Shown piece after piece: positions 14,561 through 15,871 of a stretch of 35,473 nucleotides of DNA. The position numbers and the translations under genes are program-made. Below the pieces are notes generated by a model. The model was not told the DNA's origin. It saw only the letters and a list, made by a program, of their open reading frames with translations, and did not search any database. Origin of the DNA: a virus (taxonomy: Duplodnaviria > Heunggongvirae > Uroviricota > Caudoviricetes); the IMG/VR virus record IMGVR_UViG_2850773344_000008. One strand, given 5' to 3'. Positions within the stretch are counted from its first letter, which is position 1. The number at the start of each line of letters is the position of its first letter.

Positions 14561-14749
14561 CGTAAAAACTGCTTCAATTCTTGTACGCTTCGCAAAGCTG
14601 TACCGCGAGGCGAATAGCAGACATGGACATTTGAAAGAGCCCGCTTTATGCGGTTTTTTTTATACCTGAAAAACGGCACAGGACGTTAAACGTGCTGGTG
14701 ATCAGATGAGTTTGCAGATGTGATGACATATGGTTATTATTCTGCCTCC

Positions 14750-14826
14750 GGCCCTTTAGCTCAGTTGGTCAGAGCGAGCGACTCATAATCGCCAGGTCGC
14801 TGGTTCAAGTCCAGCAAGGGCCACCA
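14750..14826 (+). tRNA. tRNA with CAT anticodon (Ile2-lysidine type or Met)
   Basis: 77-nt cloverleaf: acceptor GGCCCTT/AAGGGCC, anticodon loop CTCATAA, T-loop TTCAAGT, encoded CCA. Confidence 0.8.
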
Positions 14827-14827
14827 A

Positions 14828-14904
14828 CCACCACTAGCTCATCCGGATAGAGCATCAACCTTCTAAGTTGACGGTGCGAGGTTCGAGTCCTCGGTGGTGG
14901 GCCA
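14828..14904 (+). tRNA. tRNA-Arg (anticodon TCT)
   Basis: 77 nt: acceptor CCACCAC/GTGGTGG, anticodon loop CTTCTAA, T-loop TTCGAGT, CCA. Confidence 0.8.
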
Positions 14905-14906
14905 GC

Positions 14907-14981
14907 GCCGACTTAGCTCAGCAGGCAGAGCAACTGACTTGTAATCAGTAGGTCACCAGTTCGATTCCGGTAGTCGCACCA
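14907..14981 (+). tRNA. tRNA-Thr-like (anticodon TGT), acceptor stem imperfect
   Basis: D-arm GCTC/GAGC, anticodon stem ACTGA/TCAGT with loop CTTGTAA, T-arm with TTCGATT, 3' ACCA; but the 5' GCCGACT pairs with only six 3' bases (AGTCGC). Confidence 0.45.
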
Positions 14982-14984
14982 TAT

Positions 14985-15059
14985 GCGGGCATCGTATAAT
15001 GGCTATTACCTCAGCCTTCCAAGCTGATGATGCGGGTTCGATTCCCGCTGCCCGCTCCA
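14985..15059 (+). tRNA. tRNA-Gly (anticodon TCC)
   Basis: 75 nt: acceptor GCGGGCA/TGCCCGC, anticodon loop CTTCCAA, T-loop TTCGATT, CCA. Confidence 0.85.
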
Positions 15060-15672
15060 GCGAGATTTGAGACGAAGGTTGTTATTTGCACTGACACAAT
15101 ATTGTGTGGGAATGTCTGACTCCTTACCATCTCCTGTTCTGTGATGTTGTTTTGTTGCAGTTCCAGTGCTCTTTTTTCAGCACCAGAATGGTGCATTGTC
15201 GGTCAGGTTACGTAGTGAACCTCTGGCAGGGGACTGATAATGCATCATTCTGGTGTTGTAAATATCTCTTCGGACAACTTACAAAATATTCTAAGCAAAC
15301 CCCGGGAACACACTCTTAACTGCCTTGGTTGGCGGTTTTTTGCACAGCGCTCGGTATGTGTGAGCTGGAAATCAGATTTTGCATGGACTGGAATCATGCT
15401 GTTATTTAGGGGCGAAGAACTGGCTTTTTCTTCCGCCTTCTCACCAGTAACGATTAGAAAAATAATGAAATGCCCCCTCCGGGGAGGAGGACCGTAGAAA
15501 AAAGGACCCGCCAGCAAAAACATTGGGGATGAACAGCTTTCGCTACTCAGATTGCTGGCGGGTAAAGTTCCTCATGAATTAAGAATGCTACGCGATCTTT
15601 TTTAATGGAAATGAAAATTATTGTCAATTAGTCGTGCGTGTTTTTTCATACAATATTGGTAAAGGTGATTCA

Positions 15673-15703
15673 GGCCATCAGAGTTTTGCTGATGGCCTTT
15701 TTT
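15673..15703 (+). terminator. strong intrinsic terminator (tR'-like) just upstream of the lysis genes
   Basis: 9-bp stem GGCCATCAG/CTGATGGCC, loop AGTTTTG, then T6. Confidence 0.7.
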
Positions 15704-15871
15704 CTTTCCGATAGCACAGGTCTGTCGGGGGGGGGGATATGTATCAGATGGAAAAAATATCAACAGGCATTGCCTACGGCACCTCCGCCGGCAGTGCCGG
15801 CTACTGTTTTTTGCAGTGGTTGGATCAGTGAGGTGTACTGGCAATAGCGGACACTACCATTTGTTCTTTTT

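Follow-up and report, generated by a model that had tools for sequence, protein, structure and literature searches.

The region between the late antiterminator gene Q and the holin gene S of the analysed DNA (the window, i.e., the whole stretch of 35,473 nucleotides) is a late-gene switch of the ordinary kind, belonging to a decayed lambdoid prophage that is Rac-like and of the Shigella/EIEC type, whereby the gap between Q and the lysis genes carries RNA features only, namely four tRNA genes, a conserved long hairpin, terminators and possibly an antisense small RNA (sRNA). Taken as a whole, the region is best explained as a defective Rac-like lambdoid late-operon control region with an RNA-only slot and a joint of two modules, a reading to which a probability of about 0.8 is assigned. 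It represents an ordinary case of a known architecture, of which some non-coding RNA elements are unannotated. An earlier note on this DNA had described the order Q, tRNA array, about 680 bp, terminator and S, which agrees with the coordinates (Table 1), and this order is the general one of lambdoid late regions, being also used by Stx phages. The distance from the tRNA-Gly to the start of S was found to be exactly 679 bp (15060-15738). The notion that the slot holds tRNAs alone did not survive, as the spacer contains structured RNA, terminators and a candidate sRNA; within 14300-15900 five terminator-like sites were counted, as compared to 1.5 +/- 1.3 in shuffled sequences.

Table 1. Coordinates of the features in and around the Q-to-S region of the window.
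Feature	Position	Strand	Details
Q gene	14006-14560	+	184 aa
pR' (predicted)	14550-14578	+	-35 TTGCTT (14550-14555), 17-nt spacer, extended -10 TGcTTCAAT (14570-14578); overlaps Q stop codon
Conserved early-transcribed leader	14584-14614	+	TACGCT (14584-14589; -10-like, candidate sigma-dependent pause), then TCGCAAAGCTGTACCGCGAGGCGAA
tR', first terminator after pR'	14632-14662	+	hairpin and T8; fold
Promoter-like site of tRNA array (predicted)	14712-14740	+	TTGCAG, 17 nt, TATTAT; promoter scan
Four tRNA genes	14750-15059	+	ARAGORN; Rfam 56-70 bits
tRNA with CAT anticodon	14750-14826	+	ARAGORN; Rfam 70.5 bits; tRNA-Ile (lysidine type) in RefSeq relatives including L001
tRNA-Arg (TCT)	14828-14904	+	ARAGORN, Rfam
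tRNA-Thr (TGT)	14907-14980	+	ARAGORN
tRNA-Gly (TCC)	14985-15059	+	ARAGORN, Rfam
Post-tRNA module	15060-15341	+	72-86% shared with prophages whose Q genes and lysis cassettes are different
Long RNA hairpin, 34 pairs	15174-15262	+	RNAalifold, 13 distinct sequences
Terminator closing the tRNA/post-tRNA unit	15318-15345	+	CUGCC..GGCGG and U6
Mosaic joint of post-tRNA and pre-holin modules	15342-15358		homology of L009 ends at 15341; homology of L003, L004 and L005 starts at 15359
Pre-holin module	15359-15738	+	about 85% shared with other E. coli
Candidate leftward (antisense) sRNA, about 100 nt	15494-15597	-	ends in 12-bp stem, nested 8-bp hairpin (15505-15562) and U6 (15498-15503)
Promoter-like site for leftward RNA (predicted)	15599-15627	-	TTGACA (15627-15622), 17 nt, TAAAAA (15604-15599)
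Pre-holin intrinsic terminator	15672-15707	+	stem 15672-15698, 10 pairs, 6 G-C, T-rich tail; about 30 bp before S
S 5' fragment, class II (S21-type) holin	15739-15828	+	30 codons; Pfam Phage_holin_2_1 E 6.9e-9; L001 annotation
IS600 splitting S	15829-17065	-	comparison with L001; RefSeq 'IS3-like element IS600 family transposase'

The Q protein of the window was identified as a DUF1133 protein (Pfam, E 2.6e-106) with the PHROG annotation 'antitermination protein Q-like'; as a single sequence it scores 25.8 bits against PF06530, just below the cutoff of 26, and is filed as DUF1133. A profile built from six Q sequences (A6) matched the Q21 structure PDB 6P18 with E 4.8e-8 (6P18 and 6JNX both giving E about 5e-8), and alignment with the Q21-type Q of the Stx2a phage F349 by hhalign gave a probability of 96.4% (E 1.2e-9, residues 14-181). 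This significant protein homology argues for the DUF1133 branch being a remote homologue of Q21/Q933W, and the placement of the putative Q in this superfamily, as proposed earlier, is upheld. DUF1133 proteins may be treated as Q21-superfamily antiterminators which come with a recognisable conserved leader. Searching 50,697 phage records yielded 32 that encode a Q of the window type, none of them an Stx phage. A convincing Q-binding direct repeat, which in Q21 consists of two 8-bp subsites, was not seen by eye in 14540-14584, though this stretch is conserved.

Directly 3' of Q, the position of pR' is predicted from a TTG motif that is kept at a constant 17-nt spacing from the invariant TGCTTCAAT in three different upstream sequence types. 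At the corresponding position, phages of Providencia and Edwardsiella with a window-type Q possess TTGACT or TTGACA together with TATAGT or TAGTAT. The -10 element of the window, TTCAAT, is without the usual A at position 2 and depends on the TG extension. The leader following pR' is near-invariant in all 80 loci with a window-type Q, even where the 3' end of Q diverges, and TAYGCT plus GCGAAGCTG are recognisable also in the Providencia and Edwardsiella phages. By analogy with the loading of Q21 and lambda Q (bioRxiv 10.1101/651190), TACGCT was taken as a candidate pause element. An Rfam match of isrK over the leader (14 bits) was treated as noise.

The hairpin and T-run right after Q are tR'. 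The earlier note had seen a weaker hairpin with T8 at this place and assigned a tR'-like role to the terminator near 15673-15703; both structures do exist, but it is the former which is the true tR', while the latter, albeit strong, is a separate pre-holin terminator. The weakness of the hairpin is confined to the window and results from a G-to-T change at 14654, its fold being -23.9 kcal/mol as compared to -30.9 kcal/mol (z = -4.5) in L001, an uninterrupted E. coli copy that is 99.4% identical and served as reference for the IS damage described below. Across lineages and genera, the tR' position always holds a G+C hairpin with a T-run, whereby the hairpin sequences differ. The adjoining stretch 14656-14700 was considered as the start of a lost ORF and rejected as such: since the first gene of the relatives begins about 130 nt past tR', it is a conserved non-coding leader and no gene remnant.

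The tRNA array is preceded by a promoter-like site of its own, and an equivalent site (TTGCAA-17-TATTAT) is located upstream of ileZ in the Stx2a phage F349. The tRNA-Thr has lost one G from its 3' acceptor strand (14975; AGTCGCACCA in the window versus AGTCGGCACCA in L001) and is probably defective. The codons read by the array are AUA, AGA, ACA and GGA, which in the prophage genes occur at 7-13 (ATA), 4-9 (AGA), 9.5-15 (ACA) and 11.5-13 (GGA) per 1000 codons. This usage exceeds the E. coli averages for all four codons.

Downstream of the array the spacer was resolved into two modules. Homology to the post-tRNA module stops at 15264-15341 in three prophage loci (L007, L008, L009), and a small hairpin at the 5' side of this module covaries (ACACA/TGTGT versus GCGTA/TACGT). 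Of 5426 complete E. coli genomes, 1431 carry the pre-holin module, in part on ColV-type plasmids, where it resides beside Rz/iss remnants; it is very common in E. coli, virulence plasmids included, and unannotated. Each of the modules adjoins tRNAs or the holin gene in many non-toxigenic prophages, and together they account for the spacer in its entirety. These 679 bp are a recombinational joint and not the scar of lost toxin genes. A further locus (L076) possesses a non-homologous spacer of the same architecture, comprising tRNAs, structured RNA, a plus-strand terminator with a back-to-back minus-strand terminator, and pre-S terminators; K-12 DLP12 showed no homology to the spacer. The seemingly empty 0.6-0.8 kb in front of the holin in such prophages are full of conserved RNA structures and terminators, whose probable function is to insulate the lysis genes and some of which may give rise to regulatory RNAs.

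The most prominent structure of the post-tRNA module is the long plus-strand hairpin. Over the 13 distinct sequences, 97.5% of the cells are paired, as compared to 36-56% with the partners slid, and compensatory changes were found at six pairs with one-side variation at 14 others; the covariation score is 0.273 versus 0.05-0.11. G-U pairs make up about 23% of the cells and become mismatches when read from the other strand. Rfam gave no family for it, with only spurious miRNA-precursor matches (E <= 10, 14000-16200), and a pattern scan with one hairpin arm over one genome per species picked up nothing but S. flexneri, a single E. coli and, by chance, Acetobacterium, so that no further sequence diversity was gained. 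At the stringency of that scan the hairpin looks restricted to Escherichia/Shigella; a role in processing or stability is likely for it, for example as an RNase III substrate. The terminator closing this unit folds weakly when considered alone (z = +0.65); at the same position the relatives possess CCGCC..GGGCGG with T8-9, and L076 has an analogous terminator.

This pattern of variation also bears on the idea that a small protein, or several, encoded in the spacer had been overlooked, either in frames of 71, 85 and 92 codons or as a counterpart of a 63-aa ORF of E. coli EC21Z-014. Open frames of 71-108 codons are present indeed, and in RefSeq the corresponding DNA of that one genome is assigned the hypothetical protein of 63 aa. 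The variation follows RNA pairing and not codon position, the three frames (71-92 aa) are without a Pfam or PHROG match, two of them span the mosaic joint, and the DNA of the relatives matches all three only as pieces split over different frames; no open frame of the window corresponds to the EC21Z ORF. The frames were rejected as genes, and a missed protein is hardly to be credited. The earlier statement that the slot has no convincing ORF is in line with this, no frame being conserved.

Within the pre-holin module, an A-run-preceded inverted repeat had been noted earlier and is found at 15505-15562, but its reading as a terminator falls on the minus strand. G+C hairpins with a U-run, by which an intrinsic terminator is defined, were identified at 14632-14662 and 15672-15707 on the plus strand and at 15562-15498 on the minus strand. 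The leftward terminator hairpin (fold z = -3.5) lies in a block which varies at 13% of its columns as compared to 26-35% in the flanks, a conservation that stands for four distinct lineages, and its inner hairpin forms G-U pairs on the minus strand only. This near-invariance points to an antisense sRNA with a length of about 100 nt, for which an upstream promoter-like site is predicted. Its -35 TTGACA is invariant in the four lineages and was aligned by MAFFT with the TTGACA upstream of pasA/pasC in E2348/69; its -10 TAAAAA is weak as the final T is missing, and the promoter scan did not call the site. In one lineage, a plasmid remnant, a change leaves a G-U pair in the plus-strand fold, whereas on the minus strand A then faces C. 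A leftward RNA of about 100 nt that is convergent with the plus-strand units is likely. A covariance model of it (R1) found its own module only, plus a weak match after nanS in L028 (24 bits, E 0.2), and matched neither pasA nor pasC in L092 and L093; AgvB and AsxR (Rfam RF02702, RF02703) were not matched by cmscan either (E <= 10, 14000-16200). The pre-holin terminator (fold z = -3.4) is kept with changed stems in front of the holin in E2348/69 PP2 and PP5 and in the Stx2a phage F349, and K-12 DLP12 has a terminator before essD, too.

Whether these elements act beyond their own transcript was weighed against a purely cis-acting role, according to which the conserved spacer elements are terminators, insulators or RNA-processing sites and a leftward sRNA gene does not exist; the hairpin at 15505-15562 would then only block antisense transcription from the lysis/bor side or work in the plus-strand leader of S. 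Such a role is consistent with the leftward promoter being weak by consensus and missing from the scan calls, with R1 having no relatives beyond its own module and no match among known sRNA families, with the plus-strand G-U pair retained in one lineage, and with the recurrence of pre-holin terminators. It is difficult to reconcile with the invariant -35 at 17-nt spacing to a TA-rich hexamer, with an inner hairpin that pairs on the minus strand alone, with the PasA and AsxR-type sRNAs, which were shown experimentally and have this location and orientation in related prophages (PMC4104026, PMC8550237), and with the analogous back-to-back terminator pair in L076. A solely cis-acting role is regarded as rather unlikely. 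It is tentatively considered, as a conceivable though doubtful outcome, that the long hairpin and the leftward RNA constitute new RNA families that are widespread among prophages; both are absent from Rfam 15, and a full-text literature search with six sequence strings from both returned no papers. If this was true, the leftward sRNA would be present in about a quarter of the complete E. coli genomes and on ColV virulence plasmids beside iss, where it could act in trans like PasA/AsxR or as an antisense brake on the holin, and the 34-pair RNA would travel with phage tRNA-Thr/Gly arrays as a possible RNase III-type processing site or regulatory element.

The lysis genes S-R-Rz, which had been listed as such in the earlier note, are present but not intact. 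By comparison with L001, S is cut after 90 nt by IS600, its remainder residing at 17066-17194, and the same insertion was found in S. flexneri SFBU1023. An IS66-family element (17682-20693) displaces roughly the final 10 nt of R together with the beginning of Rz, and Rz is cut again at 20914-22153. The region is intact, for instance, in E. coli FDAARGOS_944 (NZ_CP065613, 4300864-4302258) and in EIEC CFSAN029787.

For the late-operon control region as reconstructed here, the following working is proposed. Q would load onto RNA polymerase at its own pR' (14550-14578), at the TACGCT pause element (14584-14589). In the absence of Q, transcription is expected to end at tR' (14632-14662), the product being a leader RNA some 78 nt long; when Q is present, the polymerase would pass tR', the tRNA array and the terminators at about 15345 and about 15707 and proceed into S-R-Rz. 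The tRNAs may be transcribed from their own sigma-70-type promoter, whereby the structured plus-strand RNA would be closed by its terminator, and the putative leftward RNA of about 100 nt would converge on it and end in the near-invariant terminator. The pre-S terminator is suggested to keep Q-independent transcription, coming from the tRNA promoter or from elsewhere, out of the holin gene in the lysogen.

A different origin was suggested by the earlier note, namely that the window is a toxin-free derivative of a phage converting for stx or another toxin, with the 679-bp spacer as the leftover of a deletion. The Stx-phage-like gene order, the tRNA-Ile/Arg genes and their promoter (81-90% identical to Stx2 phages) and the R protein (96% identical to an Stx2a-phage endolysin) are in accordance with this idea, as are the AB5 toxin genes eplBA, which occupy the slot in Rac-SA53 (Q 68% identical), and the IS elements, which have heavily rearranged the prophage. 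Against it stands that remnants of stx, nanS or eplA/B were not detected in the window (tblastn with Stx2A and Stx2B gave E 1 or worse at best) and that similarity to Stx2a phage DNA is limited to tRNA-Ile/Arg with the promoter (81%), 42 bp at the start of S, and R. The flanks of the stx insertion (after argO, and the 42 bp after stx2B) allow a genuine empty stx site to be recognised: three prophages with a window-type Q that were aligned to the Stx2a phage as positive controls (L029, L024, L043) match both flanks and display a clean empty site, and the window matches neither. The window-type Q is absent from the Stx phages among the 50,697 phage records, and nothing in the region ties it to an Stx phage or to cargo that was lost. 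The comparison with cargo-free lambdoid prophages, which the earlier note had itself named as decisive, went against it, as the whole 1178 bp can be aligned over their full length, at 98-99%, with such prophages of four E. coli genomes; in five more E. coli genomes the match covers the tRNA array and the spacer (84% of the 1178 bp), and S. flexneri matches as well. Moreover, uninterrupted E. coli copies possess the same spacer, and its two modules lie beside tRNAs or the holin in many cargo-free prophages. A toxin-free Q-tRNA-S layout is the normal state in many lambdoid prophages and no indication of a former Stx phage. An origin by toxin loss is considered very improbable and already largely refuted. 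In relatives with the same Q the slot is a cargo hot spot, holding the pertussis-like toxin genes eplBA, a nanS-p esterase, AraC-family regulators or a DNA methylase. As to the direction of past events, i.e., cargo that was never there or cargo cleanly replaced by recombination, present sequences cannot prove either.

Among known systems, the candidate leftward RNA resembles the AsxR/AgvB group of O157 (Tree et al. 2014) and PasA/PasC of EPEC (Pearl Mizrahi et al. 2021; Zhu et al. 2026 preprint) in being a short leftward RNA with an intrinsic terminator that is convergent with a plus-strand unit and lies between moron and holin. Prophages of O157 are documented to carry pairs of convergent sRNAs at their pR' moron site (PMC4104026), and in EPEC, PasA has an antisense position immediately in front of a class II holin (PMC8550237). 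In E2348/69 (L092), pasA resides on the minus strand between nanS-p and a class II holin. PasA lies antisense within 450 bp before this holin, a position matched by the candidate, which lies antisense 140-245 bp before S, and the candidate shares with the known convergent sRNAs a GCCAGCA motif in the 5' arm of the terminator. The RNA body, however, is unalignable with PasA/PasC, only the -35 region and short motifs being common.

With the Q21/Q933W cassette of phage 21 and Stx2 phages, the window has in common a promoter directly 3' of Q, a -10-like element after the start, a terminator about 80 nt downstream and a leader which covaries with the Q type. It differs in that its Q is only about 24-28% identical and has an insertion of about 30 residues, and that its predicted pR' relies on an extended -10. 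The Stx2 phages (Stx2a_F349, 933W; Q, ileZ-argN-argO, stx2AB, nanS-p, S-R-Rz) have Q, tRNAs and lysis genes arranged as in the window and share with it homologous tRNA-Ile/Arg genes behind the same promoter, the class II holin, the endolysin and a terminator before S, whereas the window has a Q of a different subfamily, tRNA-Thr and tRNA-Gly in place of argO, and a slot of 0.68 kb instead of 4.8 kb that is without stx, nanS-p and stx-flank homology.

The nearest toxin-carrying relatives are not the Stx phages but the LT-II/Epl Rac-like prophages of type II ETEC (Rac-SA53, SerU-LTIIb; Jobling 2016; GenBank KU052037, KU052038). Their holin/endolysin cassette differs from that of the window, which also has neither the eplBA genes found in the Q-holin slot of Rac-SA53 nor the LT-II genes located after the endolysin. 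What is shared with them is a Q family of 68-70% identity, the gene run DUF1367-YbcO-Q and hok/sok, and in SerU-LTIIb also the tRNA-Thr/Gly genes with the post-tRNA hairpin module in front of the holin.

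The architecture as a whole is an ordinary and already understood one, carried by an IS-riddled, decayed lambdoid prophage, to which the analysis adds the recognition of DUF1133 as a predicted Q21-superfamily antiterminator with a conserved leader, the reassignment of tR' to the hairpin after Q and two conserved RNA elements of known kind that lack annotation. A near-identical, uninterrupted copy is present in E. coli FDAARGOS_944 (locus L001, 99.4% identity), annotated in the order YdaT/YdaV, QueH, HokD, DUF1367, DUF1364 (YbcO), DUF1133, four tRNAs, class II holin, RrrD lysozyme, Rz, DedA and terminase. 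The allele with IS600 in S was identified identically in S. flexneri SFBU1023, which points to a Shigella/EIEC-type genome as the source of the window. Further copies of this prophage type (L012, 3791-4330; L013, 2367-5489) contain the 15194-15738 segment twice and, after tRNA-Gly, an additional insertion of about 1.3 kb, a sign that IS elements have scrambled this slot in other strains too. Upstream of Q, the window encodes a C4 antisense RNA (75.7 bits) adjoining an isrK RNA (61.5 bits; both Rfam, 4933-5121, minus strand), located within or beside ORF 4324-5289 (minus strand) at the 5' part of this Ash and Rha domain frame, a set suggestive of a C4-type immunity/antirepressor module like that of P1/P7. 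Furthermore, a prophage-borne gene for the tRNA-modification enzyme QueH (epoxyqueuosine reductase; 11475-12161, plus strand) lies 2.6 kb upstream of the tRNA array, and about 1.5 kb upstream of Q a hokD-type toxin ORF shares its sequence in part with a sok antitoxin RNA (117 bits; 12219-12544, plus strand).

Features of the late region and insertion elements (window coordinates)
Feature	Position	Strand	Remarks
Q	14006-14560		full-length DUF1133 protein
Predicted pR' -35	14550-14555
Predicted pR' extended -10	14570-14578
Candidate pause element	14584-14589		TACGCT
Hairpin and T8 (predicted tR')	14632-14662
Four tRNAs	14750-15059		anticodons CAT (annotated Ile), TCT, TGT, TCC; codons AUA, AGA, ACA, GGA
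Post-tRNA module	15060 to about 15341
Core hairpin of post-tRNA module	15174-15262	+
Hairpin and T-run	15318-15345		3' end of post-tRNA module
Pre-holin module	15359-15738
Inverted repeat with nested hairpin	15505-15562
Predicted leftward RNA	15597-15494	-	about 100 nt
Terminator before S	15672-15707	+	closes pre-holin module
IS600	15829-17065		within S; comparison with L001
IS66-family element	17682-20693		R end / Rz start; comparison with L001
Further IS	20914-22153		within Rz; comparison with L001
IS2	24587-25917		comparison with L001

The gene upstream of the tRNAs, which the earlier note had taken for a putative Q, matches PF06530 just below threshold as well as PHROG 'Q-like' families. 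A profile of six sequences from Escherichia, Klebsiella, Providencia and Edwardsiella phages matched the Q21 structures 6P18 and 6JNX (E about 5e-8), and hhalign aligned almost its entire length with a Q21-type protein, the Q of the Stx2a phage F349 (96.4% probability, E 1.2e-9). Q21 and Q933W were placed in a single family, PF06530, by Yin et al. (bioRxiv 10.1101/651190). Taken together, the DUF1133, PHROG, Q21-structure and hhalign matches bear out the assignment as a putative Q at the level of sequence.

Directly 3' of Q, the DNA is conserved in 80 of 80 IMG/VR loci encoding the window's Q, and the conserved block (TGCTTCAATTnnnGTAYGCTTCGCAAAGCTGTAYCGCGAGGCGAA) is kept even in lineages where the Q 3' end and the upstream sequence differ. 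As all three unrelated upstream sequence types keep a TTG exactly 17 nt before a TTCAAT preceded by TG, we read this as the predicted pR', whereby the TACGCT following it, at about +1 to +6, would be a candidate sigma-dependent pause element of the kind known from lambda and phage 21. In Providencia and Edwardsiella phages, whose Q is 32-42% identical, promoters close to consensus occupy the corresponding position (TTGACT/TTGACA with TATAGT/TAGTAT), followed in order by TATGCT/TACGCT, GCGAAGCTG and a terminator. About 50 nt further downstream a G+C hairpin with a T-run is found in every lineage, its sequence varying between them (CCCGC/GCGGG, CCCGCC/GGCGGG, CCACC/GGTGG), and constant position with changing sequence is the pattern predicted by a functional tR'. 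In the intact relative this first terminator after Q folds with -30.9 kcal/mol (z = -4.5) and in the window with -23.9, resulting from a G-to-T change (G14654T). Considering the lineage-wide position and the intact-relative fold, the 'weaker hairpin' described earlier is indeed present and is the predicted tR' itself; the tR'-like terminator before S exists as a distinct element.

Otherwise the layout of Q, tRNAs, 679-bp spacer and terminator was recovered at or near the positions expected. The tRNA array is preceded by a promoter-like TTGCAG-17-TATTAT ending 10 nt upstream of the first tRNA, and since a like arrangement (TTGCAA-17-TATTAT) lies ahead of ileZ in F349, the array is probably expressed independently of Q. 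Prophage genes use AUA at 7-13, AGA at 4-9, ACA at 9.5-15 and GGA at 11.5-13 per thousand codons, which we take to exceed the E. coli averages and which fits the usual codon-supply explanation of phage tRNAs. Compared with its counterpart in the intact E. coli prophage, tRNA-Thr is one G short in the 3' acceptor strand (14975); the loss should disrupt the top of the acceptor stem, yet ARAGORN and Rfam still call the sequence a tRNA. In an E. coli O121 prophage (L006, 3991-4282) with the same Q, leader and tRNA array, the spacer ahead of the holin is non-homologous and just 292 bp long, and the fourth tRNA of the array is called as Val (71 nt), not Gly.

The 679-bp spacer is the joint of two modules. 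Its open frames have no Pfam or PHROG family match and were rejected as genes, being held by relatives as pieces in different frames; the absence of a convincing ORF, as claimed beforehand, is thereby confirmed. Terminator-like sites are over-represented in the region (5 versus 1.5 +/- 1.3 in shuffles), and the unrelated spacer of locus L076 follows the same plan of tRNAs, long hairpin, plus-strand terminator, back-to-back minus-strand terminator and terminators before S. The post-tRNA module recurs with 72-86% identity 3' of tRNA-Thr/Gly arrays in prophages whose Q genes and lysis cassettes differ from those of the window, including UMNK88, STEC309, strain 504838 and the LT-IIb prophage. Among 13 distinct sequences, its core hairpin is paired in 97.5% of 442 cells versus 36-56% with partners slid, pairs changing one-sidedly via G-U in 14 cases and two-sidedly in 6 (covariation score 0.273 versus 0.05-0.11). 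About 23% of the cells are G-U and would be mismatched on the opposite strand, and the hairpin is therefore a structure of plus-strand RNA. A small hairpin upstream of it covaries as well, and the module ends in a terminator that is weak in the window and stronger in relatives.

The pre-holin module is present in 1431 of 5426 complete E. coli genomes (identity about 85%), preceding class II holins in prophages (e.g., after a DNA methylase in EC21Z-014), and as a remnant without holin, the conserved hairpin retained, in ColV-type plasmids and an ST131 island. On APEC plasmids (L004, pEND_Eco19057-2, 5001-6027) the remnant adjoins Rz/Rz1 fragments and iss; in the ST131 island, on the EC958 chromosome (L003, 5001-5342), it lies between ISL3 and IS3 remnants. 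Its most conserved part (13% variable columns versus 26-35% in the flanks) is the inverted repeat pointed out earlier, a 12-bp stem enclosing an 8-bp hairpin. The inner hairpin pairs on the minus strand only, and on that strand U6 comes after the stem. As an invariant TTGACA, 17 nt from TAAAAA, lies about 65 nt upstream on the minus strand, these signals suggest a leftward RNA (fold z = -3.5). At the end of the module stands the strong terminator before S; EPEC prophages and F349 likewise have a terminator there, built from other stem sequences. In the S ribosome-binding region (15727-15736) the window has a ten-G run where the intact relative reads GGGGGGCGGG, which could be a slippage-prone tract or a mere point change.

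Convergent sRNA pairs were reported in the moron site downstream of pR' of O157 prophages, among them AsxR, antisense to the stx2 transcript (Tree et al., PMC4104026). In EPEC, PasA is encoded on the minus strand, flanked by nanS-p and a class II holin (PMC8550237 supplements; locus L092), and pasA, pasC and pasD1 directly adjoin the holin/lysozyme operon (2026 Storz-lab preprint). The candidate leftward RNA resembles these sRNAs in position and strand but belongs by sequence neither to the AsxR/AgvB families (Rfam search) nor to PasA/PasC (search with its covariance model). The only outside match of that model, a weak one (L028, 7522-7584, minus strand; 24 bits, E 0.2), directly follows a nanS-p stop codon, a site typical of AsxR/PasA-type sRNAs.

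A toxin-free relative of an stx-converting phage, or a site of cargo loss, had been proposed, and alignment to the stx2 phage late region revealed neither an stx insertion-site pattern nor stx remnants; the window holds no remnants of Stx2A, Stx2B, nanS-p or EplA/B. Only three stretches resemble the Stx2a phage at the DNA level: tRNA-Ile/Arg with promoter, the first 42 bp or so around the start of S, and R. The positive control comes from three other prophages with the window's Q (L029, L024, L043): their alignment with the Stx2a phage extends to a point 41 bp beyond argO and resumes 42 bp downstream of stx2B, and 2-4 bp stand in place of the 1.33-kb stx2AB segment. Such is the pattern of a true empty stx site, and the window lacks it. 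None of 32 phage records with the window's Q is an Stx phage. The general intuition of a cargo slot was nevertheless right, because relatives carry eplBA, AraC-family regulators, a DNA methylase, nanS-p and other genes there, whereas the specific Stx or lost-cargo reading was not upheld. Among toxin carriers, Rac-like LT-II prophages are the nearest: Rac-SA53, with a 68% identical Q, holds the pertussis-like toxin genes eplBA in its Q-holin slot, and SerU-LTIIb possesses the same tRNA-Thr/Gly and hairpin module ahead of its holin.
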